64,000 nt of DNA from a bacterium (GCA_021821305.1 JAKACP010000001.1:330453-394452), one strand, 5' to 3'. Counted from the first letter of the stretch, positions 44,931 to 63,239 are shown. Translations and numbers: made by a program. The notes: a model not told the origin generated them from the letters alone.

Positions 44931-44951
44931 AGAATTGTATTGGCAAACGAC

Positions 44952-45071
44952 GAGCCACGCGGAGCGTGGAAAACCCTTTCAGATTCAGAATTTTTTGGGG
45001 GGAATGCATTAGTGTCGCGCCTTCGGCGCGACCCCATTTCGGGTTCCAATGCAGACTTCCAATTTTGGCGG
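44952..45071. repeat. IR-A right arm (120 bp)
   Basis: Reverse complement identical to 43431-43550. Confidence 0.8.
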
Positions 45072-45339
45072 TGTGTATTAGACAACGTTCGAATGTATTT
45101 TGAGCTAAATCCTGACGATGAGCCCTAATCGCACGCGCGGAGCGCGTGGTGACTTGAAACTGCATTGTACGCTCGGATTGCGTGGTGATGCGAACCAAAG
45201 CGCCTCGGACACGCTCGCGGACTCGCGTGTGCAAAGACCAAAAAATTTCCTTGCATTTTTCTCGCGTCTCCTCCCCCCACCCCTCCGCCGCGAAGCGGAA
45301 AAAGAAATGGAAAGGAAATTTTTGGTTTTGCTTCGCCGT
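45068..45339. repeat. IR-B left arm (~272 bp), near-perfect inverted repeat of 47478-47750
   Basis: Sequence comparison (2 differences). Confidence 0.8.
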
Positions 45340-45412
45340 AGTCATACCTATATTGTATTTTATCACACCATTGAGTCAAGACACAACATTGATTATACTC
45401 AAACTAACAAAT

Positions 45413-45619
45413 ATGTCTGATTCATCAAAAAAACTTGCCGTGAATATGAAAAAGATTAGGGCTCGTAAGCATATGTCGCAAGGCGACATATGCCGAGAGC
45501 TTGGCGTTGACCGCGCTTACATCAGCACGATTGAATCGGGGAAACAAAACCCTACACTTTTAACGATTGAAAGAATAGCCAAAGCTCTCGGCGTTTCGGT
45601 TGATGAGTTGTTGAAATGA
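45413..45619 (+). CDS. XRE-family HTH transcriptional regulator
   Basis: HTH_3-like motif (MSQGDICRELGVDRAYISTIESGK); low GC. Confidence 0.65.
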   Translation: MSDSSKKLAVNMKKIRARKHMSQGDICRELGVDRAYISTIESGKQNPTLLTIERIAKALGVSVDELLK

Positions 45620-45740
45620 TATAGAGCAAGACATTCTCAGAACCCACCGATGCTTTACACAGCGATTGAGAAAGTGAGGTGTGGATAACGAATCGTATGT
45701 GTGCTTGCATTATTATATACGAATATGCTAATATACGCAT

Positions 45741-46040
45741 ATGATAGATTTATGCAAAGAAATCGCCCGCATGGGTAGAGGTATCGGCAATGAAAACCGC
45801 TATCGTATTATTGAAACCCTCATGAAGGGCTCCCAAACAGTTGGTGATATTGCTGGGAAAGTCGGCATGCCACAACCGACCGTTTCTCAAAATCTTCGGG
45901 TTTTGAAAGAAGCGGATCTTGTCGTTGACGAACGACGCGGACAAGAAGTGTATTACACGATTAATGTTATGTATATGACAAAACTGCTCAAGCGTTTGGC
46001 CGATGACGTATCAAAGAGCGGTGGCAAAAAGCCACATTAA
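45741..46040 (+). CDS. ArsR/SmtB-family transcriptional regulator
   Basis: Winged HTH; YRIIETL...TVSQNLRVLKEADLV. Confidence 0.7.
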   Translation: MIDLCKEIARMGRGIGNENRYRIIETLMKGSQTVGDIAGKVGMPQPTVSQNLRVLKEADLVVDERRGQEVYYTINVMYMTKLLKRLADDVSKSGGKKPH

Positions 46041-46068
46041 CAATTAAACCAATATTAATCACATCACT

Positions 46069-46710
46069 ATGAAAACAATTATTGATTCTCTCAAGTGGCG
46101 CTATGCTACTTACACATTTGACACCAGTAAAGGAATTTCAGAAAAGGATTTGCATACCGTTCTCGAAGCGGGAAATTTAGCGGCTACCGCTTTCGGCTTA
46201 CAACCATTCGAGTTTGTGGTAGTTAAAGATCAGACCATGAAAGAGTCGCTAGTTCCGCACGCGTACGGACAACAGCATCTCGCAAAAAACTCTGCTTTGG
46301 TGGTACTAGCTATTCGTACTGATCTCGATGAAGCCTATATTACCGAGTACATTGAGCGTATCGGGCGTGTCCGTGGCGTTCCCGTGGAGATGCTTGAAGG
46401 TTTCAAGCAATCAATGCTCGGCGCAATGAGTATGAAAGGAGCTGATGGCAGGAATGCGTGGGCGCAAAAGCAAGCATACATTGCACTCGGCACCATGATG
46501 GCAGCTGCTTCAGAATTACGAATAGATAATCACGGTGCGGAAGGCTTTGACCCCGAGAAGTTCGATGAAATGCTCGGCCTTAAAGCAAAGAATCTTCACG
46601 CCACTGTACTTCTTATGCTCGGCTACCGTACTGATACACCAGATGACAAGGAGAAAATGTTCCAAATCAAGGTCCGCAAGGAGTATGACGATATCGTAAG
46701 TGTTATCTAG
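46069..46710 (+). CDS. NAD(P)H nitroreductase-family protein
   Basis: Nitroreductase fold similarity over the full length. Confidence 0.7.
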   Translation: MKTIIDSLKWRYATYTFDTSKGISEKDLHTVLEAGNLAATAFGLQPFEFVVVKDQTMKESLVPHAYGQQHLAKNSALVVLAIRTDLDEAYITEYIERIGRVRGVPVEMLEGFKQSMLGAMSMKGADGRNAWAQKQAYIALGTMMAAASELRIDNHGAEGFDPEKFDEMLGLKAKNLHATVLLMLGYRTDTPDDKEKMFQIKVRKEYDDIVSVI

Positions 46711-46731
46711 TTACTTACACGAAAACATTCT

Positions 46732-47115
46732 ATGAAAACTTTCTTCAAAACGCTTACGACACAGCAAAAGGTTGGCTATGTGCTCGCTACGCTTCTCTCG
46801 ATTCTTTTGCTTCTACCCGCGACCCTCAAAATCATAAGTTTCCCGATGTTCGTCGAACTCTTTACAGCACACAACATTGGCGAGTTTCTGACCGTTATCG
46901 GCCTTGGCCTCGCAGTTTCGAGTATTCTCTACGCGATACCTCGCACTAAAATGCTCGGCACCCTTCTTTTGTCAGCGTACTTCGGCGGCGCAATCGTCTT
47001 TCACATGACTGCTGACGAGCCGTTTATCATTCAGTCGGTTGTTCTTGTACTGATGTGGCTCTTTGCTTGGCTTCGTGATCCGAATGTATTTCTTCCAAAG
47101 TACTCAGATGAGTAA
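46732..47115 (+). CDS. DoxX-like membrane protein
   Basis: 127 aa, 4 TM helices, DoxX-like pattern. Confidence 0.45.
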   Translation: MKTFFKTLTTQQKVGYVLATLLSILLLLPATLKIISFPMFVELFTAHNIGEFLTVIGLGLAVSSILYAIPRTKMLGTLLLSAYFGGAIVFHMTADEPFIIQSVVLVLMWLFAWLRDPNVFLPKYSDE

Positions 47116-47477
47116 AGAGGTCTTTTTGAAGTTAAGGGAGCCAACCCCCGTCGTTTTATAATTTTCCTCAAAAACGGCGGGGGTTGTTGTGCGCGCACTG
47201 GGTGGGGCAAGCACATACAGATTTGTTTGTGCCTCAGCACAATCCATATTCCTTTGAATCACCACTAAACTCTCTCGAAGCCACCAAGCGAACACACACA
47301 ACACCGAAGCAGCCAGCGCGAGCGAATGCGAGCGGGCTATGCGAAGGCGGTTGTGTGTGGTTCGCGGACGTTAGAGTTACCACCAAACGCGGATACGGAT
47401 GCGCCTCGGTCGCCGTGAGGGTGGAGAAAAGAGCAATCAAAAGTGATAAACTAATAGTGCTTTTTTCGGAGACTGAA

Positions 47478-47750
47478 ACGGCGAAGCAAAACCAAAAATT
47501 TCCTTTCCATTTCTTTTTCCGCTTCGCGGTGGAGGGGGTGGGGGGAGGAGACGCGAGAAAAATGCAAGGAAATTTTTTGGTCTTTGCACACGCGAGTCCG
47601 CGAGCGTGTCCGAGGCGCTTTGGTTCGCATCACCACGCAATCCGAGCGTACAATGCAGTTTCAAGTCACCACGCGCTCCGCGCGTGCGATTAGGGCTCAT
47701 CGTCAGGATTTAGCTCAAAATACATTCGAACGTTGTCTAATACACACCGC
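47478..47750. repeat. IR-B right arm
   Basis: Reverse complement matches 45068-45339. Confidence 0.8.
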
Positions 47751-48211
47751 AGAAGTGAAAGAGGAGCCATTTTGTATGGCTCCTTTTTTGCTTCTATGAT
47801 GAACGCATTCGGAGTTTATGCCCCGAAGGGGTAAATCCCTCCCTTTCCGCATCAAGCTCATAGTATCGAGGGTGACCCGAGAGCCTCGAATGAGCAACAT
47901 AAAACCAAACCGCCGGTAAATGGCGGTTTTATTCTTTCTGATCTATAGATCTTCTTTACTGTATGATCCCTCTCTTTTGACTGTCACGGACAATCTTACT
48001 TTGGTCCCATAAGCTCGAGAAATTTCATGGGGTCTATCGAGAAACCGCCTATACGAACCGAGAGATGGAGGTGAGGGCCGAGAGAATAGCCCGTATTGCC
48101 GCTCTTGGCTACGGGGTCACCTTTTCCCACGTTGTCGCCCGCTTCTACACCGATTTCGGAAAGATGCATGTACATGGTCATGATACCCAATCCATGATCA
48201 ATGATGACGGT
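47747..48211. repeat. 465-bp direct repeat DR-1; includes the att-like copy of the tRNA-Ser 3' end, two terminator hairpins and the last 72 codons of an M23 peptidase gene. Identical to 60277-60741
   Basis: 100% identity at a constant offset of 12,530 bp. Confidence 0.85.
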
Positions 48212-48958
48212 ATTGCCGAAGTTTCTCAGGCTTTGGGCAAGGACCACCTTGCCGGAGTTCATGGCATATACCGACGTTCCCTCCGCTGCTCGAAAATCCG
48301 TGCCTTGATGGCTGAGACTTACGGATCCAGTCTGCCTCTTGTAGCCATAAGTATCGGTAACGGTAAGAGATCCATCAAGCGGTAAGCGGAACTCTCCGCT
48401 CCAGAGTCGTTCCGGGCCTATGATGGTGGTGACAGAGTTGAGGATAGCCGCGTCCCGTGACAAAGTGCTGGTAAGCTCGTGCTCCGCTTGGGGAGTATTG
48501 CCGCCAAGTTGCTCCGGGATGTCGAATTCTTCCGTAGCGACAACCCTTTGGCCGATCTCAAACTCCTCTTCGATTTTCCGGCCGTCCTTGAGGGTGAGGA
48601 CGATCGGATACGAACCGGGCTTTTTATGGAAATCGATTCCTACAAGTGCGGCAACCTTACCCTCATCAGCAAACACGGCAAGCGGCTTGCCATCAAGAGC
48701 AAGCGACTCGATGTTCGAGATATCGCTGATGCCGTCCAGGGTAATCCGCGCGGGCTCTCCCTGGATGAGAGCAGTGGGGAAAACGGAAAGCGATACCGGT
48801 TCCACGGCGGAAACAATGCCGGGTTTTTCTGCCTCCATGGCTTGTGATTCGGATTCTGCTTCAGGCTGGTCTTTTAGCTGTGGCAAGGCAAAGTAGAGAG
48901 CGAGGAATAAGGCTGGTAAAGTGAGCCAAAGGAGTGTTCTCATCCCTGGATTGTACAC
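47996..48958 (-). CDS. M23-family (LytM-like) metallopeptidase, paralog 1, with N-terminal TM anchor
   Basis: HxxxD (IDHGLG) and GNTGYSLGPHLHLSV motifs. Confidence 0.75.
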   Translation of the reverse strand: MYNPGMRTLLWLTLPALFLALYFALPQLKDQPEAESESQAMEAEKPGIVSAVEPVSLSVFPTALIQGEPARITLDGISDISNIESLALDGKPLAVFADEGKVAALVGIDFHKKPGSYPIVLTLKDGRKIEEEFEIGQRVVATEEFDIPEQLGGNTPQAEHELTSTLSRDAAILNSVTTIIGPERLWSGEFRLPLDGSLTVTDTYGYKRQTGSVSLSHQGTDFRAAEGTSVYAMNSGKVVLAQSLRNFGNTVIIDHGLGIMTMYMHLSEIGVEAGDNVGKGDPVAKSGNTGYSLGPHLHLSVRIGGFSIDPMKFLELMGPK

Positions 48959-49056
48959 TTCTCTGGTGGAATCGTGAAGACCGGTACTGCTTGGTCATTT
49001 ACATCAGCTTTTCAGTTGATAGCTTCCGGAAATCGTGCTATCGTGTGAGGGCGCTT

Positions 49057-49476
49057 ATGTCCAAAATAAAGAAAACGTCTCTTTTCGTCTTCGTGCTGGC
49101 CGTGATGCTTTCCACCGGAAGCTCGTGCGCTTTCCCCATGCTTCCGGCCCAAGCTTCTTCGGGGGCGATGCAAATGGGTGATCAAAGCGCTTCAGGCGAG
49201 CAGAGTGAAATCATGGATGGATATGATATGGGGTCGATGGCGCATGCGCCTCTTCCCCAAGAGCATGTGAAAACATGTTCGGCGGACTGCGGGCAGACTG
49301 TCGATGACGCGGTTACGACAAAGAAAGACAAAGAACTTTTGGAGCTTCCTGCTCTTGTTTCACAAGGTATTTTCATGCCCCCGTCGCCTCTCGATGGATC
49401 GGATCTCGAGGCTTTTGAGCGGTCAGAAATCCCGCCTTTAGGGGATGCTCTCCTCACCGTTGCCAAAAAAGAATAG
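49057..49476 (+). CDS. Secreted Met/His-rich small protein (candidate periplasmic copper-binding protein)
   Basis: Signal peptide; MQMGDQ and MDGYDMGSMAH motifs; lies in the copper gene context. Confidence 0.35.
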   Translation: MSKIKKTSLFVFVLAVMLSTGSSCAFPMLPAQASSGAMQMGDQSASGEQSEIMDGYDMGSMAHAPLPQEHVKTCSADCGQTVDDAVTTKKDKELLELPALVSQGIFMPPSPLDGSDLEAFERSEIPPLGDALLTVAKKE

Positions 49477-49618
49477 ATTGATCGAAGTGTCAGAAAGCTG
49501 AGACATTTTATCCTTGTGGATAATACTCTCTCCTTCTGGCATTTTTTGTTTCCGTTTCTTCGTGAGAGAAATGGATTTTAGCAGTCGGATCAAATAGTTA
49601 AGTCTTACATACAACCTT

Positions 49619-51259
49619 ATGGACAAGAAGAAAATAATTGTGGCGATCATAGCCATAGTCATCCTCGGCGCTCTCGCCTGGTATGGGTCGGTCGATCGCC
49701 GGATGAGAGTCGGCACCTCTGAAGAGGGGACGGCGAACCTGAACGCTCCGCCATCCGGAGATATACGGCAGGCTGTTCCGTCGGAAATCGTCGATCTCAA
49801 GGACGGTCAATCGATCGACCTTGCCATCACACCCGTCAAGAAAACGATCGCCGGGCGTACGGTGAAGATGCTCGGATACAACGGCTCCATTCCCGGGCCC
49901 ACCCTCCGTGTTCCGGAGGGTTCGGAGATTACCGTCAACCTGAAGAACGGCGGTGATATCGCCACGTCGCTCCATGCCCATGGAGTGCGGATGGAAAACC
50001 CGTTCGATGGGGTGCCGGGCGTGACTCAAAAGGAGATCGCTCCAGGTGAATCGTTCGCCTACAAGCTCAAGTTCACCGATCCGGGTGTCTTCTGGTATCA
50101 CCCCCATGTGAGAACGGATTACGCGGTCGAGTCAGGGCTCTATGCGAACATCATCGTGACGCCGAAGGATAGCGGCTATTTCCCGCCCGCCAACCGCGAG
50201 GTGCCGCTCATACTCGACGATATAGCGCTCGACAAGGACGGGATGCTTCCGTTCGATGCCAAGGTTGCGGATCATACCCTTATGGGGCGCTTCGGCAATG
50301 TCATGCTCGTGAACGGCGAGACGGACTACAAACTCCAAGCGAAACAAGGCGAGGTGGTGCGTCTCTATCTCACCAATGCGGCCAACACGAGACTCTTCAA
50401 CTTCACTCTTCCCGGAGCGAAGATGAAGCTGGTCGGGGCGGATGTGGGACGCTATGAAAAGGAAACCTTCGTGGAGGGCGTGCTTGTTGCTTCCGGCGAG
50501 CGTCGTGTCGTGGATGTTCTCTTTGAAAAGGCCGGCGAGTACGCGATGAAGCACGAGACTCCTGACAAGGAGTATGCTCTCGGAACGGTGTCCGTTTCCG
50601 CTGAAACCATCAGCCTCTCCTATACCGAAGAGTTTTCAGCGTTGCGGACGAACGCGGCCGTCGTCGATGAGTTGGAAAATCTCATGAATACGTATCTTGC
50701 GAAGAGTCCGGACAAGATCCTGAATCTTTCACTCGATATGGATCAGGAGATGCGTCAGGGTATGCCTATGGGAATGCACTCGATGAACTCGATGGGTGGA
50801 GGCGGCATGGCCATGTCGGATGCGGATATGGGCATGGGCGATGACGGAGACGCGTTGGAATGGGAGGACACGATGGCCGGTATGAACGCCCAGTCCACAT
50901 CGGACATGCTGGAATGGAAGCTCGTGGACGGCATGACGGGCAAGGTGAACGCGGATATCGATGACTGGAACTTCCGGACGGGCGACAAGGTCAAGATCCG
51001 TATCTTCAATGATCCGAAATCCCTGCATCCCATGCAGCACCCGATTCACTTCCATGGACAGCGCCTCATGGTGCTCTCGACGAACGGCGTGAAGAATGAC
51101 AACCCGGCATGGGTCGATACGGCGTTGGTAGCCACAGGCGACACGGTCGACATCCTGCTTGACGCCTCCAATCCCGGCACGTGGGTCGCACATTGTCATA
51201 TCCTGGAGCATGCGGAAAGCGGCATGATGCTCTCATACACCGTGGGAAAGACCGACTAA
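49619..51259 (+). CDS. Multicopper oxidase (CueO/laccase-like) with a Met-rich insert
   Basis: Cu-binding motifs LHAHG, WYHPH and HCHILEHAESGMM; Met-rich segment MRQGMPMGMHSMNSMGGGGMAM. Confidence 0.8.
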   Translation: MDKKKIIVAIIAIVILGALAWYGSVDRRMRVGTSEEGTANLNAPPSGDIRQAVPSEIVDLKDGQSIDLAITPVKKTIAGRTVKMLGYNGSIPGPTLRVPEGSEITVNLKNGGDIATSLHAHGVRMENPFDGVPGVTQKEIAPGESFAYKLKFTDPGVFWYHPHVRTDYAVESGLYANIIVTPKDSGYFPPANREVPLILDDIALDKDGMLPFDAKVADHTLMGRFGNVMLVNGETDYKLQAKQGEVVRLYLTNAANTRLFNFTLPGAKMKLVGADVGRYEKETFVEGVLVASGERRVVDVLFEKAGEYAMKHETPDKEYALGTVSVSAETISLSYTEEFSALRTNAAVVDELENLMNTYLAKSPDKILNLSLDMDQEMRQGMPMGMHSMNSMGGGGMAMSDADMGMGDDGDALEWEDTMAGMNAQSTSDMLEWKLVDGMTGKVNADIDDWNFRTGDKVKIRIFNDPKSLHPMQHPIHFHGQRLMVLSTNGVKNDNPAWVDTALVATGDTVDILLDASNPGTWVAHCHILEHAESGMMLSYTVGKTD

Positions 51260-51290
51260 GCAAATATTCAAATCGATAACGGAGAATCCT

Positions 51291-52121
51291 ATGCAAGATG
51301 AACACAGGCAGGAAAAAGACGAAGCCGGAGATCCGGTAGAGACTCGGGGAAAAGAAGGGGCGTCGGGTCGGGAGACGTGGATCATCGCCGGGGCGATCCT
51401 CTTGGGGAGCCTCATCGTCAGCGGGGGCATACTCTTCTCCCGTGGGACCTTTCAGAAAACATCCGATTCAGGCGCGACTGGAATACTGCAGCCGTCAGAA
51501 AATCCCTCGCCGATCGCGGAGCGGCCGGAGAGGCGGCCCGGCGAATCGGTGAAGGTCTCGACGGATGATGATGCCGTTTTGGGAGACAAGGATGCGCCGA
51601 TCACGCTGATCGAGTTTTCGGACTATGAGTGTCCATTCTGTAAACGCTCGTTCACTGATGTGCTTCCGGAGCTCAAGAAAACATATATCGACACAGGAAA
51701 AGTGAAACTCGTCTTCCGGGATTTCCCCCTGTCCTTCCATGCGAACGCCGGGAAGGAGGCGGAGGCGGCCGAGTGTGCGAGGAGCCTTGGGGATGATGTG
51801 ACGTACTACAAATTCCATGACCAGATCTTCACCAAAACCACTTCGAACGGGACTGGTTTGGCTCTTACGGAATTGCCTGCGATTGCGAAAAACCTTGGTC
51901 TCAACGTGAATCAGTTTCAGCAGTGTTTGGATTCGGGAAAGTTCAAAGACGAAGTAGCCAAGGATATGGCCGACGGGGAGGCGGCCGGTATTTCCGGTAC
52001 GCCATCATGGATTATCGGTGCTTCCAGCAAGGATGGCCAGATTGAGGGGCAGCTTGTCGTGGGAGCCCAGCCTTTCTCCGCGTTCAAGGCTATTATCGAT
52101 GAAAAACTCGGTAACAAGTAA
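51291..52121 (+). CDS. DsbA-family thiol:disulfide oxidoreductase, membrane-anchored
   Basis: CPFC active site in a thioredoxin fold. Confidence 0.7.
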   Translation: MQDEHRQEKDEAGDPVETRGKEGASGRETWIIAGAILLGSLIVSGGILFSRGTFQKTSDSGATGILQPSENPSPIAERPERRPGESVKVSTDDDAVLGDKDAPITLIEFSDYECPFCKRSFTDVLPELKKTYIDTGKVKLVFRDFPLSFHANAGKEAEAAECARSLGDDVTYYKFHDQIFTKTTSNGTGLALTELPAIAKNLGLNVNQFQQCLDSGKFKDEVAKDMADGEAAGISGTPSWIIGASSKDGQIEGQLVVGAQPFSAFKAIIDEKLGNK

Positions 52122-52127
52122 AAGATT

Positions 52128-52631
52128 ATGAGTAAGAAACAGCGAAAAATACCTTCCGCGGCCTGGTGGACTATCGGGTTAACTGTTGTCGTTATCGGGC
52201 TGATCGTGTTCCTTGGAGCAAGGTACTCCGGTCCTTCGAAAACCAATCGAGAGGTGGCTTTGTCGTGTACTACTGATATGGCTACCCGATTCCATATTCA
52301 TCCCAGCCTGGAGATTCGCATCAACGGCGAGAAACAGGTTATTCCTACGAATATCGGAGTCGATGCCAACTGCATGAATGCGCTCCATACCCACGGAACG
52401 AGCGGTGAAATCCATGTCGAGTCGCCGCAAAAACGAGACTTCACCCTTTCCGATTTCTTTGCGGTATGGGGCAAAACATACAGCAAAGATCAGATCCTCG
52501 ATTCCAAGGCTGATGAGAAATACATCATTCGCGAAACCGTAAACGGCCAAGAGGTGGGGGATTACGAAAATACCATCTTGCATGATAAGGACAAGATCGT
52601 TATTTTCTACGAGGAGAGAAATAAGGAGTGA
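52128..52631 (+). CDS. Hypothetical membrane-anchored His-rich protein
   Basis: ORF with TM anchor; HIHP...HTHGTSGEIH. Confidence 0.35.
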   Translation: MSKKQRKIPSAAWWTIGLTVVVIGLIVFLGARYSGPSKTNREVALSCTTDMATRFHIHPSLEIRINGEKQVIPTNIGVDANCMNALHTHGTSGEIHVESPQKRDFTLSDFFAVWGKTYSKDQILDSKADEKYIIRETVNGQEVGDYENTILHDKDKIVIFYEERNKE

Positions 52632-52667
52632 TGCCGCGGATCCGGTCAATGACGAAGGCTACAAGAT

Positions 52668-53213
52668 ATGAAAAACATCTGGTCTCCAAAAACCATTCTT
52701 CCCGCAGTCATGATCGCGGCGCTCTATGTCGTGGTAACCGTGTACCTCATGAATGCGGGGCTGGTGATGGATGCGATGTTCGGAACCCATTCGGCCGGAT
52801 ATAGGCAGAGTATCCTCATCGCGTTGCTTACGGGCATGTGGACGGCCATGAGCGCGCCCAGTCTGTTCCTCCTTGTCGTCGTCGCGATGCTTACCGGACT
52901 CAATCTCATGTTTGTCCTGGAGCGGCTCCGGACGGTCCGGTCTTCCGGGAAGATGCATCTGGCGGTAGGCGGGAGCTCCCTTCTTGGGATAGTGGGGAGC
53001 GGCTGTGCGAGTTGTGGACTGCCGATACTGGCCTTCCTGGGTCTCGGCGGCGCAGCCGCCTCCCTGCCCTTTCGGGGCATGGAGCTTTCCATCCTGACCG
53101 TCGCACTCCTTTCCGTATCCTTGTATATCCTGGTGAAAGGACGCGAACGGCAGGCGGTCTGTGCCGTCGGGACCATGGAATACCAGGATCGACACGTCGT
53201 CATTCCGGAATGA
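52668..53213 (+). CDS. Polytopic membrane protein with a CxxC motif (GSGCASCGLP)
   Basis: ORF with ~5 TM helices. Confidence 0.35.
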   Translation: MKNIWSPKTILPAVMIAALYVVVTVYLMNAGLVMDAMFGTHSAGYRQSILIALLTGMWTAMSAPSLFLLVVVAMLTGLNLMFVLERLRTVRSSGKMHLAVGGSSLLGIVGSGCASCGLPILAFLGLGGAAASLPFRGMELSILTVALLSVSLYILVKGRERQAVCAVGTMEYQDRHVVIPE

Positions 53214-53284
53214 TCTCCGACAGGCATGGAGATGAACGGGGGCAGAAGAATCGAAGTCCAAGAGAAAAGATCTTACCTCATAAC

Positions 53285-53677
53285 ATGAAGAATATGGAAT
53301 ACGGATACAAGCGCAGCGTATCGTTCCCTTTCGCCGATGCGGTCCTGAAGACGAAGGCGGAGCTCTCGAAGGAGGGATTCGGTGTCCTTACCGAGATCGA
53401 TGTGAAGGCGGCATTCAAGGAAAAACTCGGCGTGGAGCATGATGAGTATCTCATTCTCGGCGCATGCAACCCGAAGCTTGCCCAAAGAGCGCTCCAGGCG
53501 GAAAAGGGAATCGGCCTCTTCCTGCCTTGCAATGTCATCGTGTACAGGGAGGAAGGAGAGACAGTGGTCGCGACGATCCTCCCCGCCGCGGCAATGAGCG
53601 TGATCGGGAACCCGGCTTTGGACGAAGTCGCACGGGAAGCGGAGGAGAAACTGAAGAGGGCCGTCGATGCGGTCTGA
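53285..53677 (+). CDS. DUF302-domain protein
   Basis: Full-length DUF302 similarity. Confidence 0.55.
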   Translation: MKNMEYGYKRSVSFPFADAVLKTKAELSKEGFGVLTEIDVKAAFKEKLGVEHDEYLILGACNPKLAQRALQAEKGIGLFLPCNVIVYREEGETVVATILPAAAMSVIGNPALDEVAREAEEKLKRAVDAV

Positions 53678-53691
53678 CTATACGGAATGAT

Positions 53692-54402
53692 ATGGAATAC
53701 ATCTGGTTCATCTGGAGTCTGATATCGGTCGGCATCTGGCTGGCTATCTATCTTTCCCTGGACACGAGGGAGAAAAAGAAAGAAATGCTCATCGTCAGCC
53801 TGTGGACATCGCTCCTGGGCCTCACCGAACCGATTTTCGTTCCTGAATACTGGTCTCCTCCTTCGCTCTTCGATCTGGCCATGAAAACCGGGTTCGATAT
53901 CGAGAGTCTTGTTTTCTCTTTCGCTATCGGCGGCATAGCCGTGAGTCTGTATGAGCGGATCCTGCCGATCCGACATGTTTCCCTCTCAGCCGCAGAACAG
54001 CGCTCCGCCCGTCACGGATTTCATATCTGGGCGCTTCTTTCGGCGCCGGCGGTTTTTATCGTCCTGCTCCTCGCAGCCGATCTGAACCCGATTTACTCGG
54101 CGGTTGTCGCCATGGTTACCGGTGGACTGGCCACGTGGTATTGCCGGCCGGATCTCAAGAAGAAGATGTTCACGAGCGCTTTCATATTTCTTGCCCTCTA
54201 TTTCCTCTATTTTTTCACGCTTATCGCCATGTCGCCGGGCTATGTAGGACAGGTCTGGAATCTCCTGGCGATTTCAGGGATTCTGATCCTTGGTATTCCG
54301 CTCGAGGAGCTCTTGTTCGCGTGGAGTTTCGGGTTCATCTGGTCGAGCGTTTATGAACATGTCACATGGCGAAAATTTAACCAGAGCGCAAATTTATCTT
54401 AA
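53692..54402 (+). CDS. Membrane protein with lycopene-cyclase-domain-like PxEE motifs
   Basis: LTEPIFVPEYW and GIPLEELLFAW repeats. Confidence 0.35.
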   Translation: MEYIWFIWSLISVGIWLAIYLSLDTREKKKEMLIVSLWTSLLGLTEPIFVPEYWSPPSLFDLAMKTGFDIESLVFSFAIGGIAVSLYERILPIRHVSLSAAEQRSARHGFHIWALLSAPAVFIVLLLAADLNPIYSAVVAMVTGGLATWYCRPDLKKKMFTSAFIFLALYFLYFFTLIAMSPGYVGQVWNLLAISGILILGIPLEELLFAWSFGFIWSSVYEHVTWRKFNQSANLS

Positions 54403-54461
54403 GTCTTGTCATGGTATCATTGTATCTTGAGGTTATAAGTATCACCGATTACTAAAATAAT

Positions 54462-55403
54462 ATGTATGAAAAACCACAGGCACAATCTTCTTCTCTCGGA
54501 TCACATACGCCCTCTTTGACAGGCGCTAGGGACGCGCGCGCTCTCAAGATTGCCGGGTGGCTGACCGGAGTATACTTTGTCTTTGAGCTTGGTGTTGGCC
54601 TGTGGACAGGCTCAGTGTCTGTTACTTCTGACGCATTTCATACGTTCTCTGCCGTTGGCGGGGTATTGATTGCGGTCGTGGCGAGCGCCTATGCCAAGCG
54701 AGCGGCAACACCGGTTCAGACATTCGGACTTATACGAGCTGAGGTTGTCGGAGCTTTGTTGAATGGATTATTCCTCTTCGGCATGGCGGGATTTGTTCTT
54801 TGGATGGGGATCATGCGCCTACAAAATCCCATCGATCTTTCAGCGGGTACCATGTTCTTGGTAGCTATCGGAGGCCTTATAACTGAGATAATTTCCATGC
54901 GTCTGATGTGGGCGGGGCAAAAGGAGAACCTGAATATGAAGGGAGCCTTCTGGCATATCATTCAAACATTTGTCGGTAGCATTATCATTATTGTTTCGGC
55001 GCTCGTCATACAATTTACGGGATTTCTCCAAATCGATCCACTCCTTGGTATGGCATTTGGACTCGTATTGTTTTGGGCATCGTGGAAAATTATAAGAGAG
55101 GCTCTGCACATACTTTTAGATAACGTGCCAAAGGGCCTTGATCTCCATGATGTGAAAACTGTCATCGAAAAGATACCGGGGGTAGAAAACATCCATCATT
55201 TGCATGCGTGGGCTTTAACAAGCGGGAAAAATATCGTATCTGCTCACGTACGAATTACGGACATGGCGGAAGGCGTTCGTATTCAGAGGCAGATATACGC
55301 AATACTCACCAACGACTTCAACGTATATTTTTCTACAATACAAGTTGAAACCGAATGTTTAGAGCAAGAGACAGCGCAGGAGATAGATTTTTTAGGTAGG
55401 TAG
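54462..55403 (+). CDS. Cation diffusion facilitator (CzcD-like) metal efflux transporter
   Basis: 6 TM helices plus cytoplasmic domain; CDF signature; low-GC block begins here. Confidence 0.8.
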   Translation: MYEKPQAQSSSLGSHTPSLTGARDARALKIAGWLTGVYFVFELGVGLWTGSVSVTSDAFHTFSAVGGVLIAVVASAYAKRAATPVQTFGLIRAEVVGALLNGLFLFGMAGFVLWMGIMRLQNPIDLSAGTMFLVAIGGLITEIISMRLMWAGQKENLNMKGAFWHIIQTFVGSIIIIVSALVIQFTGFLQIDPLLGMAFGLVLFWASWKIIREALHILLDNVPKGLDLHDVKTVIEKIPGVENIHHLHAWALTSGKNIVSAHVRITDMAEGVRIQRQIYAILTNDFNVYFSTIQVETECLEQETAQEIDFLGR

Positions 55404-55447
55404 CAGATCACGATGATCACTAACCCGATAATAAACGGAACAAGACT

Positions 55448-57649
55448 ATGACTCTATATACTTGCCCCATGCATTCAAAGGTGCAACAAGACAAACCTGG
55501 ATTATGCCCCAAGTGTGGCATGAGACTTGTTAAGGCTGAAACAAAAACAGATCATAGTGCTCACGCTGGTCACGTCATGGGAGAACAGTCCAAAATGGGT
55601 TTCTGGGAGAAATTCAGGATGAGTATGTCCATGACGATGGGGATGGATCATACCGGTCTCGCTGGACGGGAAATGGCTCGCCTCATGGAGATTGACATCC
55701 GAAACAAGTTCTTCTTCGCGTTTATATTGACCATTCCGATCATCCTCTACTCACCCCTGGGCACGGAGTTTCTTGGGCTTAACCTTCCATCCCCATTTCC
55801 GCTACCATGGCTTCTTTTTCTTCTCACCACGCCGGTATTCTTCTATTCGGGTTGGATTTTTCTCTACTCGACATATTTTGCATTGAAAAATAGGACGCTC
55901 AATATGGCCGTACTTATTGCGGTTGGCATCACAGCTGCCTATGGATTCAGTATCTTACTTACCTTGATTGGTAGCGCTGACTCTTACTATGAAGCGGCGG
56001 CTATGCTTATTACGTTTGTTCTCTTCGGTCATTGGATGGAAATGAAGTCTCGCCGTGGAACAACTGATGCGCTGCAGGCACTTTTTAATCTCGTACCACC
56101 TCAAGCCAGAGTCTTCAAAGATGGTAAGGAGATAATGGTTGCAACGAGCGATATACAACTTGGAGACATCATTATTCTTAAGCCGGGAGACAAAGTTCCA
56201 GTTGATGGTGAAATCATTGAAGGCGAGACTGCCATTGACGAATCCCTCGTTACTGGAGAATCGATTCCTACAGCGAAGAAGATCGGGGATCAGGTGATTG
56301 GCGGATCAATCAACACTGCTGGCTCGGTCAAATTTAAGGCAACAAAAATCGGTAAGGATACCGCTCTTGCTCAAATTGTCCGGATGGTTGAGGAGGCGCA
56401 GAACTCAAAAGCCCCTGGACAAAGAATCGCTGACAGATTTGCGAAATATCTGGTCATTGGGGCTATCGGGTCAGGACTTCTCGTTTTTATTATCTGGTAT
56501 TTTATTGTCGGTTCACCATTGCTTTTGGCGCTTTCTTTTGCGATCGCTACGGTTGTCATTGCTTGCCCAGATGCTTTGGGGTTAGCCACTCCGACGGCGG
56601 TAGCGGTCGGAACGGGTCTCGGAGCTAAACATAATATTCTTATCAAAGATGCTCCGACTCTTGAGCAAGTCTCAAAAATTCAAGCCATTGTACTCGACAA
56701 AACAGGCACCCTCACTGACGGAAAGCCGAAAGTAACCGACATAGCTACAGTGGATGGATTTGAGGCAAATGAAGCACTTCGTTTAGTTGGAGCGGCTGAA
56801 GCGAAATCATCTCACCCTTTGGCCGGGGCTGTCCTTGAGGAACTTAAAAAACGAAGCCTGACATTGCCAGAGTCAGTTGATAAATTTGAAAACCTTTCTG
56901 GTTTGGGAGTGAAAGCCATCGTTGATGGGAAAGCTGTGCTCATAGGGACAGTTAAGCTTATGAAAGAAAGTAACATTGCTCTCGGTGAGTTGGAACAAAA
57001 AATCAATGAGTATCTGGAAAGAGGAGAAACGATTATGATTCTCGCGGTTGATGGCACTATCAAGGCAGTAATTGGCGCGACTGATCCCATAAAACCCAAT
57101 GCCATAAAAGCAGTAGAACGTCTGAAGCTACTTGGAATCGAAATCGCCATGATTACCGGTGATAATAAAATGACCGCAGATAAAGTAGCGAGTCAGATTG
57201 GTATAGAAAGAGTGTTTGCAGAAGTGATGCCAGAAGATAAGGCGAGTTATGTCAAAAAGCTCCAGCAGGAAGGAAAATTCACGGCAATGGTTGGCGACGG
57301 TGTCAACGATGCTCCCGCGCTTGCTCAATCGGATGTCGGTATTGCGATTGGTGCGGGCACGGATGTCGCGATTGAGACAGCGAAAGTTGTTCTCATGAAG
57401 TCTGACCCGCTAGACATCCTTCGAGCAATAACTTTGAGCAAGGCGACAGTTCGCAAGATGAAGCAGAATCTTTTCTGGGCGTCCATCTACAATATTCTTG
57501 CCATACCAGTTGCTGGTGGCATTTTGTACCCGAGTTTTGGCATCATGCTCCGTCCGGAATTTGCAGCGCTTTTGATGAGTGTGTCTTCGATCATTGTTGC
57601 AGTAAATGCCGTGCTATTGAAGCGAGTTGAATCAGAACTTAAGGCTTAA
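55448..57649 (+). CDS. copA: Heavy-metal (copper-type) P1B ATPase with an N-terminal Cys-rich metal-binding module; TM6 motif reads CPD
   Basis: DKTGTLT, TGDN and GDGVNDAP motifs; N-terminal CPMH...CPKCGM; IACPDALGLATP. Confidence 0.85.
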   Translation: MTLYTCPMHSKVQQDKPGLCPKCGMRLVKAETKTDHSAHAGHVMGEQSKMGFWEKFRMSMSMTMGMDHTGLAGREMARLMEIDIRNKFFFAFILTIPIILYSPLGTEFLGLNLPSPFPLPWLLFLLTTPVFFYSGWIFLYSTYFALKNRTLNMAVLIAVGITAAYGFSILLTLIGSADSYYEAAAMLITFVLFGHWMEMKSRRGTTDALQALFNLVPPQARVFKDGKEIMVATSDIQLGDIIILKPGDKVPVDGEIIEGETAIDESLVTGESIPTAKKIGDQVIGGSINTAGSVKFKATKIGKDTALAQIVRMVEEAQNSKAPGQRIADRFAKYLVIGAIGSGLLVFIIWYFIVGSPLLLALSFAIATVVIACPDALGLATPTAVAVGTGLGAKHNILIKDAPTLEQVSKIQAIVLDKTGTLTDGKPKVTDIATVDGFEANEALRLVGAAEAKSSHPLAGAVLEELKKRSLTLPESVDKFENLSGLGVKAIVDGKAVLIGTVKLMKESNIALGELEQKINEYLERGETIMILAVDGTIKAVIGATDPIKPNAIKAVERLKLLGIEIAMITGDNKMTADKVASQIGIERVFAEVMPEDKASYVKKLQQEGKFTAMVGDGVNDAPALAQSDVGIAIGAGTDVAIETAKVVLMKSDPLDILRAITLSKATVRKMKQNLFWASIYNILAIPVAGGILYPSFGIMLRPEFAALLMSVSSIIVAVNAVLLKRVESELKA

Positions 57650-57662
57650 CTAGGACAGTGCT

Positions 57663-58250
57663 ATGAAGAAAACTATTGCTATTTCTGTTCTTCTTCTCGC
57701 TCTCATGGAAGGTATTTCCTGGTGGGCTTATAAGTCATGGTCTTCTCAAGGCACTGATGAACCCTCTTGGCCTTCAGAGGAAAAGCAAGTACCAGCGCCT
57801 TTGTCTAATGCGGTAAGTCAACAGCCAATCGAAAAACCCGAAAGTATCCCACCGAGTGACAACCAAACCTCAACTACTCCCGAAACTTCTCCTGCCGATC
57901 TTCTTCCAAAGGGGATGGGTTCCAGCAGCTCAGAAGGCAGTTTCCCGCTACCCAGCACTGAAGTAGTTAATGGAGTGACGGAACGCACTATTCATATGGG
58001 GGTGCGGCAATACGAATGGGACCCGAAAATCATTCGGGCCAAGCAAGGAGAATTAGTGCGCCTCATAATACACAATGCTGATGTAAAGCACGGTATTGCT
58101 ATTCCTGAGCTTGGAGTGAACGAAGACATCTCTCCCGATGGCGCAGTAGTTACCTTTCAGGCAACAAAGAAAGGAACCTTTGAGTTCTTTTGTTCTGTCT
58201 GGTGTGGGGAAGGGCATATGGAAATGACAGCGAAGCTTGTTATAGAATAG
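57663..58250 (+). CDS. Secreted cupredoxin-like (CuA-type) domain protein
   Basis: H...CSVWCGEGHMEM matches the CuA-like Cx3CGx2Hx2M pattern; signal peptide. Confidence 0.6.
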   Translation: MKKTIAISVLLLALMEGISWWAYKSWSSQGTDEPSWPSEEKQVPAPLSNAVSQQPIEKPESIPPSDNQTSTTPETSPADLLPKGMGSSSSEGSFPLPSTEVVNGVTERTIHMGVRQYEWDPKIIRAKQGELVRLIIHNADVKHGIAIPELGVNEDISPDGAVVTFQATKKGTFEFFCSVWCGEGHMEMTAKLVIE

Positions 58251-58292
58251 GAAGCCCCCTATCATTTTTGCCTGTATTCAAGGAGCTTCTAA

Positions 58293-59063
58293 GTGGACAA
58301 TTACATAACGATGGAAATCAAAAAAAAGACAATTCTGCCGATCCTCATACTCGTGTTTGTTGGTATCTCACCCATCATTTTTCTCTCAAGAGAAGCAGAA
58401 GAAGAGCAGAACACTAACCCTTCTTCCCAGGCGACACAGGAAGACATAACTCCTCCAGACTCTAAAAAAGAAAACGACGCTCAGGAAGGCATGGTATTAA
58501 ACGTCCCGTTTACTGCTCAGGCTCCGCTTGGTAATTGGAGCGACCCGAGACAACAGAACGGCTGCGAGGAAGCGGCCACTCTTATGGCTATGGCTTGGGT
58601 GGAAGGAAACACTTTGACGCCGGAAGAAGCTGAAAGAGAAATCACGGCCATCGCGGATTATGAACTTCAAAACATGGGGCATTTCCATGATTCATCAGCC
58701 GAAGATCTGGTGAGATACATTTTCAAAGGATATTTCGGTTATGAGAATGTTGAGATCAAGTACGATATTGATGCCGAAGATATTAAAAATGAACTAAGAC
58801 GTGGCAATCTGATCTTAGTACCTGCGAATGGTAAAACATTGAATAACCCTTTCTATACAGAGCCGCCACTGGAGCATATGGTCGTCATCCGCGGGTATGA
58901 CAGTGAAACAAAAGAATTCATCGTGAATGATTCCGGTACAAGCCGAGGTGAGTTATTTCGCTACGCTGAAGATGTCATTATGAACGCCATCTACGACTAC
59001 CCAACCGGCTATCATGAGCCAGTAAATGAGCTGAGAAAAGCAATGATTATTGTTAAAAAATAA
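58293..59063 (+). CDS. C39-like (papain-fold) cysteine peptidase domain protein, membrane-anchored
   Basis: QQNGCEEAATLMAMAW (Cys) and HMVVIRGYD (His). Confidence 0.5.
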   Translation: MDNYITMEIKKKTILPILILVFVGISPIIFLSREAEEEQNTNPSSQATQEDITPPDSKKENDAQEGMVLNVPFTAQAPLGNWSDPRQQNGCEEAATLMAMAWVEGNTLTPEEAEREITAIADYELQNMGHFHDSSAEDLVRYIFKGYFGYENVEIKYDIDAEDIKNELRRGNLILVPANGKTLNNPFYTEPPLEHMVVIRGYDSETKEFIVNDSGTSRGELFRYAEDVIMNAIYDYPTGYHEPVNELRKAMIIVKK

Positions 59064-59079
59064 GTACCGCCCTGTGAGT

Positions 59080-60057
59080 TTACCTTGAGCCCATAAGCTC
59101 GAGAAATTTCTGGGGATCTATCGAGAAACCGCCTATGCGGACCGAGAGATGGAGATGGGGGCCGAGAGAATAGCCCGTATTACCGCTCTTAGCTATGAGA
59201 TCTCCTTTTTCCACGCTATCACCCAGTTTTGCATCGGTTTCGGAAAGGTGCATGTAAAGCGTCATTAAACCCAAACCATGGTCAATGATGACGGTATTCC
59301 CATAGTTCCTGAAGCTCTTGGAAAAGACTACCTTGCCAGAGTTCATGGCATAGACAGATGTCCCCTCAGACGCTCGAAAATCTGTGCCTTGATGCATGAG
59401 ACTTACGGATCCTGTCTGCCTGCTGTAACCATAGACATCTGTGACAGTAGGAGATCCGTTGAGAGGGAGCCGGAATTGTCCGCTCCAGAGCCTCTCTGGG
59501 CTTATGGTTGTGGTAATAGAGTTAAGGATGACGGTGTCCTGCGCTAAGGTACTGGTGAGCTCATGCTCCGCTTGGGGCGTATTGCCTCCCAGCTGCTCAG
59601 GGATGTCAAATTCTTCCGTAGCAACAGTCCTTTTCCCAACCTCAATCTTTTCTTCGATTTTCTGACCGTCTTCAAGAGTGAGAACGATTGGATACACACC
59701 GGGTTTTTTATGTGGATCGATACCGACTAGCGCCACAAGCCTTCCTTCATCAACAAATACGGAGAGTGGCTTGTCATCGAGGGTAAGTGATTGAATGGGT
59801 GCGGCAGAGACGAGGCCGGCTATGGTAATCCGCGCGGGCTCTCCCTGGATGAGAGTAGTCGGGAAGACAGAAAGTGATACCGGCTCTACGGTGGAGATGG
59901 GGCTAGATTCTTCCGTCTGTATGAGTGGTGATTCAAGTGTTGCTTCGGGCTGACTTTTTAGTTGCGGCACGATAAAATATGTCGCGAGGAATAAAATTGG
60001 TATAGCACTCCAGAGAAGTAGTTTCATCACTCTATTATACAGCTTTTCCATCAGCAT
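59080..60057 (-). CDS. M23-family metallopeptidase, paralog 2 (diverged)
   Basis: Same architecture and motifs as paralogs 1 and 3. Confidence 0.75.
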   Translation of the reverse strand: MLMEKLYNRVMKLLLWSAIPILFLATYFIVPQLKSQPEATLESPLIQTEESSPISTVEPVSLSVFPTTLIQGEPARITIAGLVSAAPIQSLTLDDKPLSVFVDEGRLVALVGIDPHKKPGVYPIVLTLEDGQKIEEKIEVGKRTVATEEFDIPEQLGGNTPQAEHELTSTLAQDTVILNSITTTISPERLWSGQFRLPLNGSPTVTDVYGYSRQTGSVSLMHQGTDFRASEGTSVYAMNSGKVVFSKSFRNYGNTVIIDHGLGLMTLYMHLSETDAKLGDSVEKGDLIAKSGNTGYSLGPHLHLSVRIGGFSIDPQKFLELMGSR

Positions 60058-60276
60058 TTCACCTTTGACTATTAAACCAATATATTAGGGAAGGAGAGGA
60101 TAGAGGAGACACAAGGCTGTCTCATTATGATAAAATGAGACATAGCCTGTCCTGTGTCTCATTTGTCTCGTTTTATCCTCAAAACCGCGACCCGAGAGCC
60201 TCAATTCACTCGTCGGCCAAGACCCCCAAGAAATCCCTCAACAGCTTGATTTCTCAAAGTTCTAGACCGATGACGC

Positions 60277-60741
60277 CCGCAGAAGTGAAAGAGGAGCCAT
60301 TTTGTATGGCTCCTTTTTTGCTTCTATGATGAACGCATTCGGAGTTTATGCCCCGAAGGGGTAAATCCCTCCCTTTCCGCATCAAGCTCATAGTATCGAG
60401 GGTGACCCGAGAGCCTCGAATGAGCAACATAAAACCAAACCGCCGGTAAATGGCGGTTTTATTCTTTCTGATCTATAGATCTTCTTTACTGTATGATCCC
60501 TCTCTTTTGACTGTCACGGACAATCTTACTTTGGTCCCATAAGCTCGAGAAATTTCATGGGGTCTATCGAGAAACCGCCTATACGAACCGAGAGATGGAG
60601 GTGAGGGCCGAGAGAATAGCCCGTATTGCCGCTCTTGGCTACGGGGTCACCTTTTCCCACGTTGTCGCCCGCTTCTACACCGATTTCGGAAAGATGCATG
60701 TACATGGTCATGATACCCAATCCATGATCAATGATGACGGT
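60277..60741. repeat. 465-bp direct repeat DR-2 (identical to 47747-48211)
   Basis: Sequence comparison. Confidence 0.85.
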
Positions 60742-61473
60742 TTTTCCGAAATTCCGAAGGGTTCCGGTATAGGCCACTTCCCCGGAGTTTATGGCATGGA
60801 CGGGTGTTCCTTCGGCAGCCCGGAAATCCGTTCCCAGGTGACTCAGGCTCACCGACCCCGTTTTTCTGCTGTAGCCGTAGGTGTCGGTGACCATCGGATC
60901 GCCTCCAAGAGGAAGTCGGAATGGACCGCTCCATAGCTGTTCCGGGTTTACCTTCGCGGTCACCGAGTCGAGCACGGACGAATCCGTGGACAGGGTGGCC
61001 GTAAGTTCGTGTTCGGCTTTGGGAGTATTGCCACCCAGTTGTTCCGGGATATCGAATTCCGCCGTAGCCACTACCCGCGGCTTCACTTCCAGGTTTTCCT
61101 TGAATATCCGGCTATCATCCAACGTGAGGACGAGCGGATACGAGCCTGGCTTCTTATGGAAATCGATACCGACCAGCGCGGCCATCCCGCTCTCATCGGA
61201 AAATACGGGAACGGGCTTGTCATCGAAAGTGAGTGATTCGATGTCAGAGAGGGAAGCGACGCCGCGTATGATGATCCGCGCGGGCTCTCCCGGGATGGCG
61301 GCAGCCGGGTCAGGAGCAAGGGATACCAGTGTCTCGGGCGAGGGCATGCCGGGTTTCTCTGCCTCTTCCCGTGGCGGTTGAGGTGCCTTCTCGGGATTAT
61401 TTTTTTGCTCCGGCACAACAAAATACAGAATCAGCAAGAGTATGGGGAGAGTGATCGCGAGAAGTGTTTTCAT
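60526..61473 (-). CDS. M23-family metallopeptidase, paralog 3
   Basis: M23 motifs; 3' end identical to paralog 1. Confidence 0.75.
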   Translation of the reverse strand: MKTLLAITLPILLLILYFVVPEQKNNPEKAPQPPREEAEKPGMPSPETLVSLAPDPAAAIPGEPARIIIRGVASLSDIESLTFDDKPVPVFSDESGMAALVGIDFHKKPGSYPLVLTLDDSRIFKENLEVKPRVVATAEFDIPEQLGGNTPKAEHELTATLSTDSSVLDSVTAKVNPEQLWSGPFRLPLGGDPMVTDTYGYSRKTGSVSLSHLGTDFRAAEGTPVHAINSGEVAYTGTLRNFGKTVIIDHGLGIMTMYMHLSEIGVEAGDNVGKGDPVAKSGNTGYSLGPHLHLSVRIGGFSIDPMKFLELMGPK

Positions 61474-61610
61474 CTAAAAAGTATACGATTCTCTCGCGAT
61501 TTTGGAAAGGAGAAAATCCCTCATCCTCTCCGTCGCGGGAACGGAACATGCTATACTCGCGAGGAATTCATACTGCCGGGTGTCGGCATTTATCGCTGAT
61601 TGAAAGACCC

Positions 61611-63230: not shown

Positions 63231-63239
63231 CAGGTATGG

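Follow-up and report, generated by a model that had tools for sequence, protein, structure and literature searches.

The 64,000-nt stretch of bacterial DNA analysed here (GCA_021821305.1 JAKACP010000001.1:330453-394452; hereafter the window, from whose start all coordinates are counted) belongs to a member of the Patescibacteria with a tiny genome and originates from one 826,099-bp contig. It contains two identical direct repeats of 465 bp, which bracket a cluster of metal-resistance (copper/zinc) genes next to a tRNA-Ser gene occupied by a large serine recombinase (LSR) element. The comparisons point, on balance, to a recent non-reciprocal homologous exchange as the origin of these repeats, i.e., to gene conversion (or a duplication and subsequent deletion with the same result) between two segments, each made up of a tRNA-trailer-like sequence and an M23 peptidase 3' end. 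The features concerned are as follows:

47747..48211 (+): repeat 1, the putative donor, with the native tRNA-Ser trailer and the stop codon and last 71 codons of M23A; it holds a terminator (47762-47784), a pseudo-tRNA 3' fragment (47821-47850) and a bidirectional terminator (47907-47929)
47996..48958 (-): M23A peptidase (PF01551), by synteny the orthologue of the M23 gene adjoining the genes for a 139-aa protein and a multicopper oxidase (MCO) on L093, a contig of a relative
59080..60057 (-): M23B peptidase, inside the block; its N-terminal part has 72% amino acid identity to M23A and 58% to M23C
60058..60276 (+): region f, upstream of M23B and forming the right end of the block, with a long imperfect palindrome (~60097-60173) and CCGC-GACCCGAGAGCCTC (60185-60202)
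60277..60741 (+): repeat 2, the putative recipient, an exact copy of repeat 1 over the original trailer-like segment and the 3' end of M23C
60526..61473 (-): M23C peptidase (PF01551), with its own N-terminal 243 aa and an M23A-type C-terminus of 71-72 aa

Positions 47747-48211 and 60277-60741 match at 465 of 465 nucleotides at an offset of 12,530, as found both by a repeat search and in a windowed alignment. To the left of 47747, the alignment shows identity between the copies at background level only; inside the repeat it is complete (40/40 per window), and to the right of 48211 it drops to 24-33/40, or ~60-70%. The preliminary description of this DNA, which reported two identical repeats whose identity stops abruptly inside the M23 coding region, is confirmed by these values. 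Its further statement that each copy carries two terminator hairpins and the end of an M23 gene also holds: terminator-like hairpins are located at 47762-47784 and 47907-47929, with counterparts at +12,530, and both copies include the stop codon and the last 71 codons of an M23 peptidase open reading frame (ORF). The left edge of the repeat shares CCGC with the outer end of a 280-bp inverted repeat ending at 47750, and the right edge immediately follows ATCAATGATGACGGT, a stretch conserved among M23A, M23B and M23C. An Rfam search of the repeat and of the long inverted repeats found only the true tRNA and no other structured RNA.

M23C is a chimeric gene. M23A and M23C are 63% identical over the first 243 aa, and the tail that they share is identical. 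Among 621 pairs of M23 homologues whose N-terminal identity is 65-80%, conservation in the last 71 aa exceeds that of the rest by 9.9 +/- 5.4 points. Against this distribution, M23C and its closest relative, P0002, show a C-terminal minus N-terminal identity of -5 (the 0.3% tail), and M23C compared with A-type relatives gives +21 to +23. For M23A, the differences are normal (0 to +11 with its closest relatives, +8 with M23B), and the tail of P0002 groups with those of other C-type proteins. The shared tail is thus of the A-type, and repeat 1 would therefore be the donor and repeat 2 the recipient. A simple best-hit identity gave no direction of conversion, but the comparison of C- with N-terminal identity did. 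Two features expected of gene conversion are found here, namely a perfect tract with abrupt edges in diverged paralogues, and a tract that is incongruent with the rest of the recipient gene.

The second line of evidence is the contig L010 (SRR33230237_1180349), which aligns to 48777-60282 with 90 mismatches; none of these occurs over the 2.1 kb between 58152 and 60282, and they are clustered at 48777-50200 and 57500-58200. L010 lacks repeat 1 and has other flanks on both sides of the block. At its right end, it departs from the window precisely at the left edge of repeat 2, reading ...CCGCAG-TGAACGAAGTGAACGGAGGAAAGG. This tail can be aligned to the start of the repeat (GAAGTGAA..GAGGA) with a 6-nt indel and substitutions, and the chance of an 8-mer match between two 24-mers was estimated by ourselves at ~0.004. 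Most simply, L010 would have retained the diverged trailer-like segment in its original state, and this segment would have been overwritten in the lineage of the window. A gene-conversion tract had been listed as an alternative in the preliminary description; given the 465/465 tract, the breakpoint of L010 and the A-type tail of M23C, it is the explanation that fits best.

The left edge of the tract is set by the LSR element, whose parts are listed below. The recombinase-bearing island reported upstream at the tRNA-Ser gene is indeed present, as an element of 4.3 kb (43435-47750) whose ends are fixed by the junctions of its family.

43347..43436 (+): tRNA-Ser(gct), the attB host gene of the LSR element (ARAGORN; Rfam tRNA, 49.8 bits); its last 17 nt, 43418-43434, form the motif discussed below
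43326..44930 (-): large serine recombinase gene, with the Pfam domains Resolvase, Recombinase and Zn_ribbon_recom (PF00239, PF07508 and PF13408, each above the cut-off)
43431..43550 (+): b arm, left end of the element, starting with CCGCCAAAATTGG; attL is tRNA/b; the arm encodes LSR residues ~460-499
44952..45339 (no strand): internal junction of the inverted b arm (44952-45071) and the inverted c arm (45068-45339), both part of inverted repeats
45413..47115 (+): cargo, comprising HTH_3 (45413-45619), ArsR (45741-46040), nitroreductase (46069-46710) and DoxX-like (46732-47115) genes, assigned with Pfam
47478..47750 (+): outer c arm, right end of the element; attR is c/CCGC/trailer at 47747-47750

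The b arms form a perfect inverted repeat of 120 bp (43431-43550 / 44952-45071) around the LSR gene, and the c arms form one of ~280 bp (45068-45339 / 47478-47750) around the four cargo genes. CCGC is common to all junctions: tRNA/CCGC/b at 43431, inverted b/GCGG/inverted c at 45068, and c/CCGC/trailer at 47747. Accordingly, attL is located at 43431-43434 and attR at 47747-47750. The four nucleotides common to repeat 1 and the c arm are the recombination core, and the original tRNA trailer (AGAAGTG..., followed by the terminator) begins at 47751. Since the left edge of the repeat is the attR core of the LSR element, and the junctions of the family always read arm/CCGC/flank, homology cannot reach further to the left.

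The exchange can be pictured as follows. Two old and diverged paralogous segments would have been present, each with a tRNA-trailer-like sequence from CCGCAG onwards and then an M23 3' end. The segment by the tRNA-Ser gene and the LSR element (trailer and M23A 3' end) would have acted as the donor, and the one past the copper block (x-type trailer and M23C 3' end) as the recipient. A RecA-type exchange would have copied the 465 bp, consisting of the trailer, the pseudo-tRNA fragment, the two terminators and 216 nt of M23A, to the paralogous site 12.5 kb downstream. On the left, the tract would end at the limit of homology, where the c arm (or the tRNA, before the arrival of the element) faces region f, each followed by CCGC. 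On the right, it ends at the most conserved stretch of M23, which would be a natural spot for a heteroduplex or crossover to resolve. It may be that site-specific recombination at the tRNA-Ser core was already the source of the older duplication into two trailer + M23 units.

Several points weigh against this explanation. The direction depends mainly on one close C-type homologue, P0002, with P0022 and P0052 in support. Past its breakpoint, L010 offers only 24 nt at the tip of the contig, so the unconverted state is read from a short alignment. CCGC stands just left of the tract at both donor and recipient, a coincidence of 1/64 to 1/256 unless the older paralogy arose site-specifically. The junction between f and repeat 2 was not found in any second assembly, and a de Bruijn graph cannot tell an integrated block from a block-free chromosome accompanied by a 12.53-kb circle that has the 465 bp in common with it.

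These last two points bear on the layout itself. L089, a Logan contig from SRR13304626, a sample that seems to contain this strain as well, is 100% identical to 60712-64000, and its end falls 30 nt inside the repeat; this is the expected behaviour of a k=31 graph at a true branch, i.e., at a repeat with two real contexts. L011 matches 48742-59853 at 100% identity, and L012 (MEGAHIT, same organism, 100% over 11.7 kb) traverses the b arms and ends where the c arm starts. All MEGAHIT and Logan contigs of the same organism break in or near repeats. It is hardly credible that the second copy of the repeat, or the join to f, was created when the genome was closed. Such an artefact would agree with the 100% identity of every repeat in the region, with the contig breaks and with the failure of any independent assembly to span the f/repeat junction. 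Yet, L089 ends 30 nt inside the right edge as if both M23A/repeat and M23C/repeat existed there, f and the c arm share just CCGC(AG), which is too short for a k-mer misjoin, and both M23 ORFs are intact. Moreover, the nested inverted repeats next door recur in more than 100 unrelated metagenome contigs.

The same breaks are compatible with a 12.53-kb circle carrying the copper genes and one 465-bp copy, which either recombined into the chromosome (Campbell-type insertion) or still coexists with a block-free one. Exactly two identical direct repeats, reaching as far as the shared homology, are what a single crossover would leave; the two layouts look alike in short-read graphs, with contigs such as L089 breaking at the repeat edge, and a near-identical block occurs with other flanks in a second sample. 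A circle would, however, need a donor in which f was already joined to these 465 bp, and the sole other copy, in L010, has a diverged version. If it were born from recombination between M23A and M23C, the shared C-terminus should be C-type, but it is A-type. In addition, the block holds no replication or mobilisation genes, and the source is a single 826-kb contig. This origin is thus considered unlikely. Look-ups of related sequences yielded no strain with an empty site or a deletion junction. Exact-protein look-ups with M23A and M23C, in which the source contig was excluded, gave no match. Those with the ComF and PLD proteins returned nothing beyond one 3.9-kb Logan contig, the contig of a RecG relative at 98.4% identity extends away from the locus, and an exact 33-mer from the repeat had no match in the JGI metagenomes. 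In RecG-anchored GTDB synteny, the nearest relatives are just 76% identical and on short contigs, which makes the site uninformative there.

The preliminary description favoured a different origin, in which the copper block is a second integrative element placed in tandem at the tRNA-Ser attachment site and closed, like the first, by its own att repeat. It pointed to a 17-bp copy of the tRNA-Ser 3' end in each repeat, and this copy exists. The motif AATCCCTCCCTTTCCGC occurs exactly three times, at 43418 (inside tRNA-Ser(gct)), 47834 and 60364, against ~0.01 expected by chance. Beyond the 17/17 match, the likeness to a tRNA is weak, with 24 of 30 nt in total; the matched parts are the tRNA's own T-stem and acceptor. 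Within the repeat, the motif is situated 87 bp from the left edge and 361 bp from the right edge. The occurrence at 60364 is present only through the duplication of the whole 465 bp and, hence, gives no independent support for a second att site. Nor is the motif the crossover point, as no tRNA sequence is duplicated in conservative serine recombination. An older event probably displaced this tRNA 3' fragment into the trailer, and the conversion would have carried it along as a passenger within the tract.

The crossover point used by this recombinase can be read from the family to which the element belongs. A 36-nt b-arm pattern matched at least 120 JGI metagenome contigs. In the ~80 loci that were fetched, the outer end of the b arm reads CCGCC(A)AAA throughout, and its flank is either the 3' end of a class-II tRNA or a c arm. 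About 45 of the junctions are tRNA/b-arm junctions, and eight are c-arm/host junctions, all with c/CCGC/ followed by unrelated host sequence. The adjacent tRNA was called tRNA-Ser by ARAGORN in 51 of 52 cases, with every anticodon represented, and the LSR gene is oriented toward the tRNA in 24 of 26. In the LSR proteins of the 90% cluster, identity extends to ...SGSNADFQFWR; beyond it, they diverge into translated tRNA T-arms or the c arm, which places the junction directly after the b arm. Integration by this family, thus, takes place at the very 3' terminus of tRNA-Ser genes and uses CCGC(CA) as its core. At the right end of the window element, this core is at 47747-47750 and not at 47834, and the claim that the 17-bp motif is an att site is not upheld.

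The metal-resistance cluster extends over 49057..59063 (+) and comprises the following genes, assigned from gene calls and Pfam:

49057-49476 (+): 139-aa protein
49619-51259 (+): MCO
51291-52121 (+): DsbA-like protein
52128-52631 (+): 167-aa protein
52668-53213 (+): 181-aa protein
53285-53677 (+): DUF302 protein
53692-54402 (+): lycopene-cyclase-domain membrane protein
54462-55403 (+): CDF transporter
55448-57649 (+): P1B ATPase with HMBD
57663-58250 (+): cupredoxin-like protein
58311-59063 (+): C39-like peptidase

A Pfam search of all ORFs revealed no recombinase or replication genes in the block, and megablast found no plasmid relatives of it in PLSDB. The GC content is reduced across 54-60.5 kb. 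A chromosomal relative of the cluster is present on L092/L093 (ERZ534008 NODE_6, a 198-kb contig), where the ComF gene has 95% nucleotide identity. The neighbourhood on L093 reads M23-139aa-MCO-DsbA-167aa-...-DUF302-cupredoxin at 76-91% nucleotide identity, and its M23 gene is directly followed by an ATPase gene, with no tRNA, trailer or repeat adjoining. As L093 shares the core without the tRNA or trailer, M23A and the copper core are an old chromosomal synteny in a variable region. The cluster on L093 differs in its remaining genes: it includes a SHOCT protein, an alginate lyase, MarR and a MacB-type ABC transporter, and has no CDF, ATPase or C39 gene in that position. Because of this difference in composition, the M23-to-ComF interval appears to be a variable hotspot across the lineage. 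Judged from these arrangements, the copper block is best described as a variable but largely chromosomal cluster and not as a second integrative element.

Two identities proposed for region f were rejected. As a degenerate element arm, it is not recognised by a profile of 22 c arms, which finds just the two known arms and nothing at 60130-60280 at E <= 10. As a decayed tRNA 3' half, it gives p = 0.70 and 0.12 in ungapped comparison with the two tRNA-Ser genes, and Rfam returns no tRNA match at E <= 10. The palindrome at 60097-60173 (GAGACACAAGGCTGTCTCATT...AATGAGACATAGCCTGTCCTGTGTCTC), upstream of M23B, has Rfam matches at chance level only and, from its sequence, may be an operator or an RNA hairpin. 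Region f also shares a 14-nt exact match, GACCCGAGAGCCTC, with the repeat (60185-60202 in f, directly preceded by CCGC, versus 47874-47887 / 60404-60417); this may be a relic of an older junction.

Tandem accretion is, on these grounds, distinctly improbable. It draws on the fact that the site is a proven integration hotspot, with the family found by tRNA-Ser in 51 of the 52 tRNA-adjacent junctions, that the CCGC core also follows the right end of the block, as at LSR junctions, that L010 has a near-identical block with both flanks different, and that GC is lower at 54-60.5 kb. Composite LSR islands with repeated att sites of ~18 bp exist, as in SCCmec. On the other hand, the block is without a recombinase, f is neither a c-type arm nor tRNA-like, the neighbouring LSR uses CCGC at the tRNA end and not the 17-mer, and the internal 17-mers are copies of one another. 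Conservative recombination can neither duplicate the 87 + 361 bp around the core nor enter a gene. The core of the cluster is syntenic on the chromosome of a relative, and M23C is chimeric. Considered as an island (47851-60363), the block has no integrase of its own at the tRNA-proximal end, as the sole recombinase belongs to the separate 4.3-kb element, and its bounding repeat is not a tRNA fragment or att core alone but a sequence of 465 bp that runs into the M23 coding sequence. The picture of two tandem elements, each with its own att repeat, is therefore not retained, in view of the missing recombinase and arms, attR at 47747-47750, the L093 synteny and the flanks of L010. Relatives with the block but without flanking repeats and att cores had been named as evidence that would speak against that picture; L010 carries the block with no repeat 1 and with a diverged sequence at the start of repeat 2, and L093 has the core with no tRNA or repeat adjoining. 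What stands is that the tRNA-Ser site accumulates foreign DNA, in the form of the LSR element; a second such element, the copper block, is not supported.

Further observations concern the block of L010 and the tRNA genes nearby. The divergence of L010 from the window is mosaic: 68 of the 90 mismatches are in the first 1.4 kb, 20 are in the cupredoxin gene, and 0-2 are spread over the remaining ~9 kb. This pattern has the appearance of a signature of recombination patches inside the block. Before the block, positions 1-3330 of L010 encode a 621-aa protein, a UvrD-like helicase (686 aa) and a 165-aa ORF, and M23A is cut to its first ~60 codons; this left flank may be a defence-type insertion. 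In the window, tRNA-Ser(tga) (41118-41205) is located 2.2 kb upstream of tRNA-Ser(gct) and ends in ...CTCCGCAG (...CCGCAG) with no encoded CCA, like the inferred ancestral site of tRNA-Ser(gct). This gene is unoccupied, although 13 other loci show the LSR family at tRNA-Ser(tga). A tRNA-Arg(gcg) end is repeated exactly over 24 nt, 117 bp from the gene (40204-40227, 40321-40344), which resembles a fragment of a tRNA displaced by a further integration or excision event in the past.

The LSR family has one fixed architecture: tRNA-Ser/b arm-LSR-inverted b/inverted c-variable cargo (2-13 kb)-c arm/host. In its members, the b arms are always 120 bp long and the c arms 204-419 bp; arms are 95-100% identical inside one element and ~10% diverged across elements. 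L002 represents a complete element at 93.6% identity. The b arm gives the tRNA back a CCA end. As the LSR ORF crosses the b arm and the crossover point into the tRNA, the C-terminal tail of the protein depends on the state of integration. The last ~35 residues vary accordingly among LSR proteins (P0123-P0137), with tRNA-derived tails, a c-arm-derived tail or a short RR* tail. The internal junction of the window element corresponds in sequence to an inverted copy of the c/CCGC/b junction that excision would make (attP-like). Such c/CCGC/b junctions exist in most complete family members and are also an internal feature of integrated copies, every one of which keeps the inverted form. The double inverted-repeat layout may serve flip-flop inversion, act as a docking site or allow an amplification like that of the 2-micron plasmid. 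L131, in which the LSR segment is flanked by c arms on either side, could be a circle or a tandem. Twenty-two contigs, from many unrelated samples, carry the cargo cassette with a 100%-identical nitroreductase; the majority have a length of ~2.2 kb and break off at the c arms. In L001 (by an ATP synthase operon) and L003 (by a bAvd/DGR-type gene), the c arm has a CCAC core instead of CCGC and abuts non-LSR sequence. The LSR shares at most 27.5% identity with phage serine integrases, and one IMG/VR contig matches at 63%. No description of the element family was found in the searched literature. The LSR element family is more unusual than the repeats, which, taken as gene conversion, are an ordinary ectopic event yielding an amplifiable or deletable unit.

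A connection between the two can be imagined. Each repeat carries a near-perfect mimic of the left half of the family's attB, i.e., the tRNA-Ser 3' end including CCGC (47821-47850, 60351-60380). A RecA loop-out could, then, produce a 12.53-kb pseudo-attB circle, which the element might capture through its inverted attP-like junction at 45068. This is very improbable. If true, a chromosomal copper cluster would become the cargo of a widespread tRNA-Ser-targeting element, and streamlined Patescibacteria without conjugative machinery would have a gene-packaging route for transfer.

Ectopic gene conversion between bacterial paralogues is well known, for example, in tufA/tufB and in rRNA operons. 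The present case resembles it in the perfect tract within diverged paralogues, in having one edge at the homology limit and the other in a conserved motif, and in its incongruence. Unlike in tufA/tufB or rRNA operons, the tract here covers an intergenic tRNA trailer and a gene end and brackets a 12-kb accessory cluster, and the event is deduced from its product. Long direct repeats are, in turn, a classic substrate for RecA-dependent loop-out and tandem amplification, as in resistance loci and the amplifiable units of DNA (AUDs) of Streptomyces. An accessory metal-resistance cluster between perfect repeats of several hundred bp is similar to such units; in contrast to them, the repeats here are a converted gene end with a trailer and neither insertion sequence elements nor rRNA operons.

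The yeast 2-micron plasmid has an FLP/FRT inverted-repeat layout with a tyrosine recombinase. A circular form of the LSR element would be similar in holding two inverted recombinase-site repeats (~400 bp) that part the recombinase from the cargo, but the LSR element has a serine recombinase, integrates at tRNA-Ser and is known here from sequence alone. In SCCmec and other SCC elements, Ccr large serine recombinases act at the 3' end of rlmH, and the units are bounded by ~18-bp repeats without long nested inverted repeats. The window shares with SCC composites (e.g., PMC10581047) an LSR at the 3' end of a conserved gene and the occurrence of elements in series at one site; unlike in SCC, the second unit lacks element ends and is enclosed by homologous repeats of 465 bp. 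Islander-type islands and tycheposons mostly encode tyrosine integrases and are delimited by tRNA-fragment repeats (PMC4383910; bioRxiv 10.1101/2020.12.28.424599). They are comparable in the tRNA 3'-end site, the displaced tRNA fragment, the small cargo elements and the variable DNA downstream. In contrast, only the 4.3-kb LSR element can be demonstrated as an integrant here, and it leaves a CCGC core with no duplication of a tRNA fragment.

For the interpretation of similar loci, a caution follows: a tRNA-like motif in a long repeat next to a recombinase mimics a tandem att arrangement, and ~70 family junctions put the crossover elsewhere. The LSR family, strictly tRNA-Ser-targeted and abundant in groundwater-type metagenomes, merits a study of its own. 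Perfect direct repeats of 465 bp are far above the minimal homology for RecA recombination. They could plausibly permit a RecA-type loop-out of the block, leaving c-arm/repeat/M23C with an intact M23C, or tandem amplification under metal selection; no deletion or amplification variant was found among the sequences compared. In this way, ~1.5% of the 826-kb chromosome, with the multicopper oxidase, the Cu-ATPase, the CDF transporter and others, would be poised for loss or amplification, which would bear on the assembly and binning of such metagenome-assembled genomes and on the adaptation of ultra-small Patescibacteria to metal stress.

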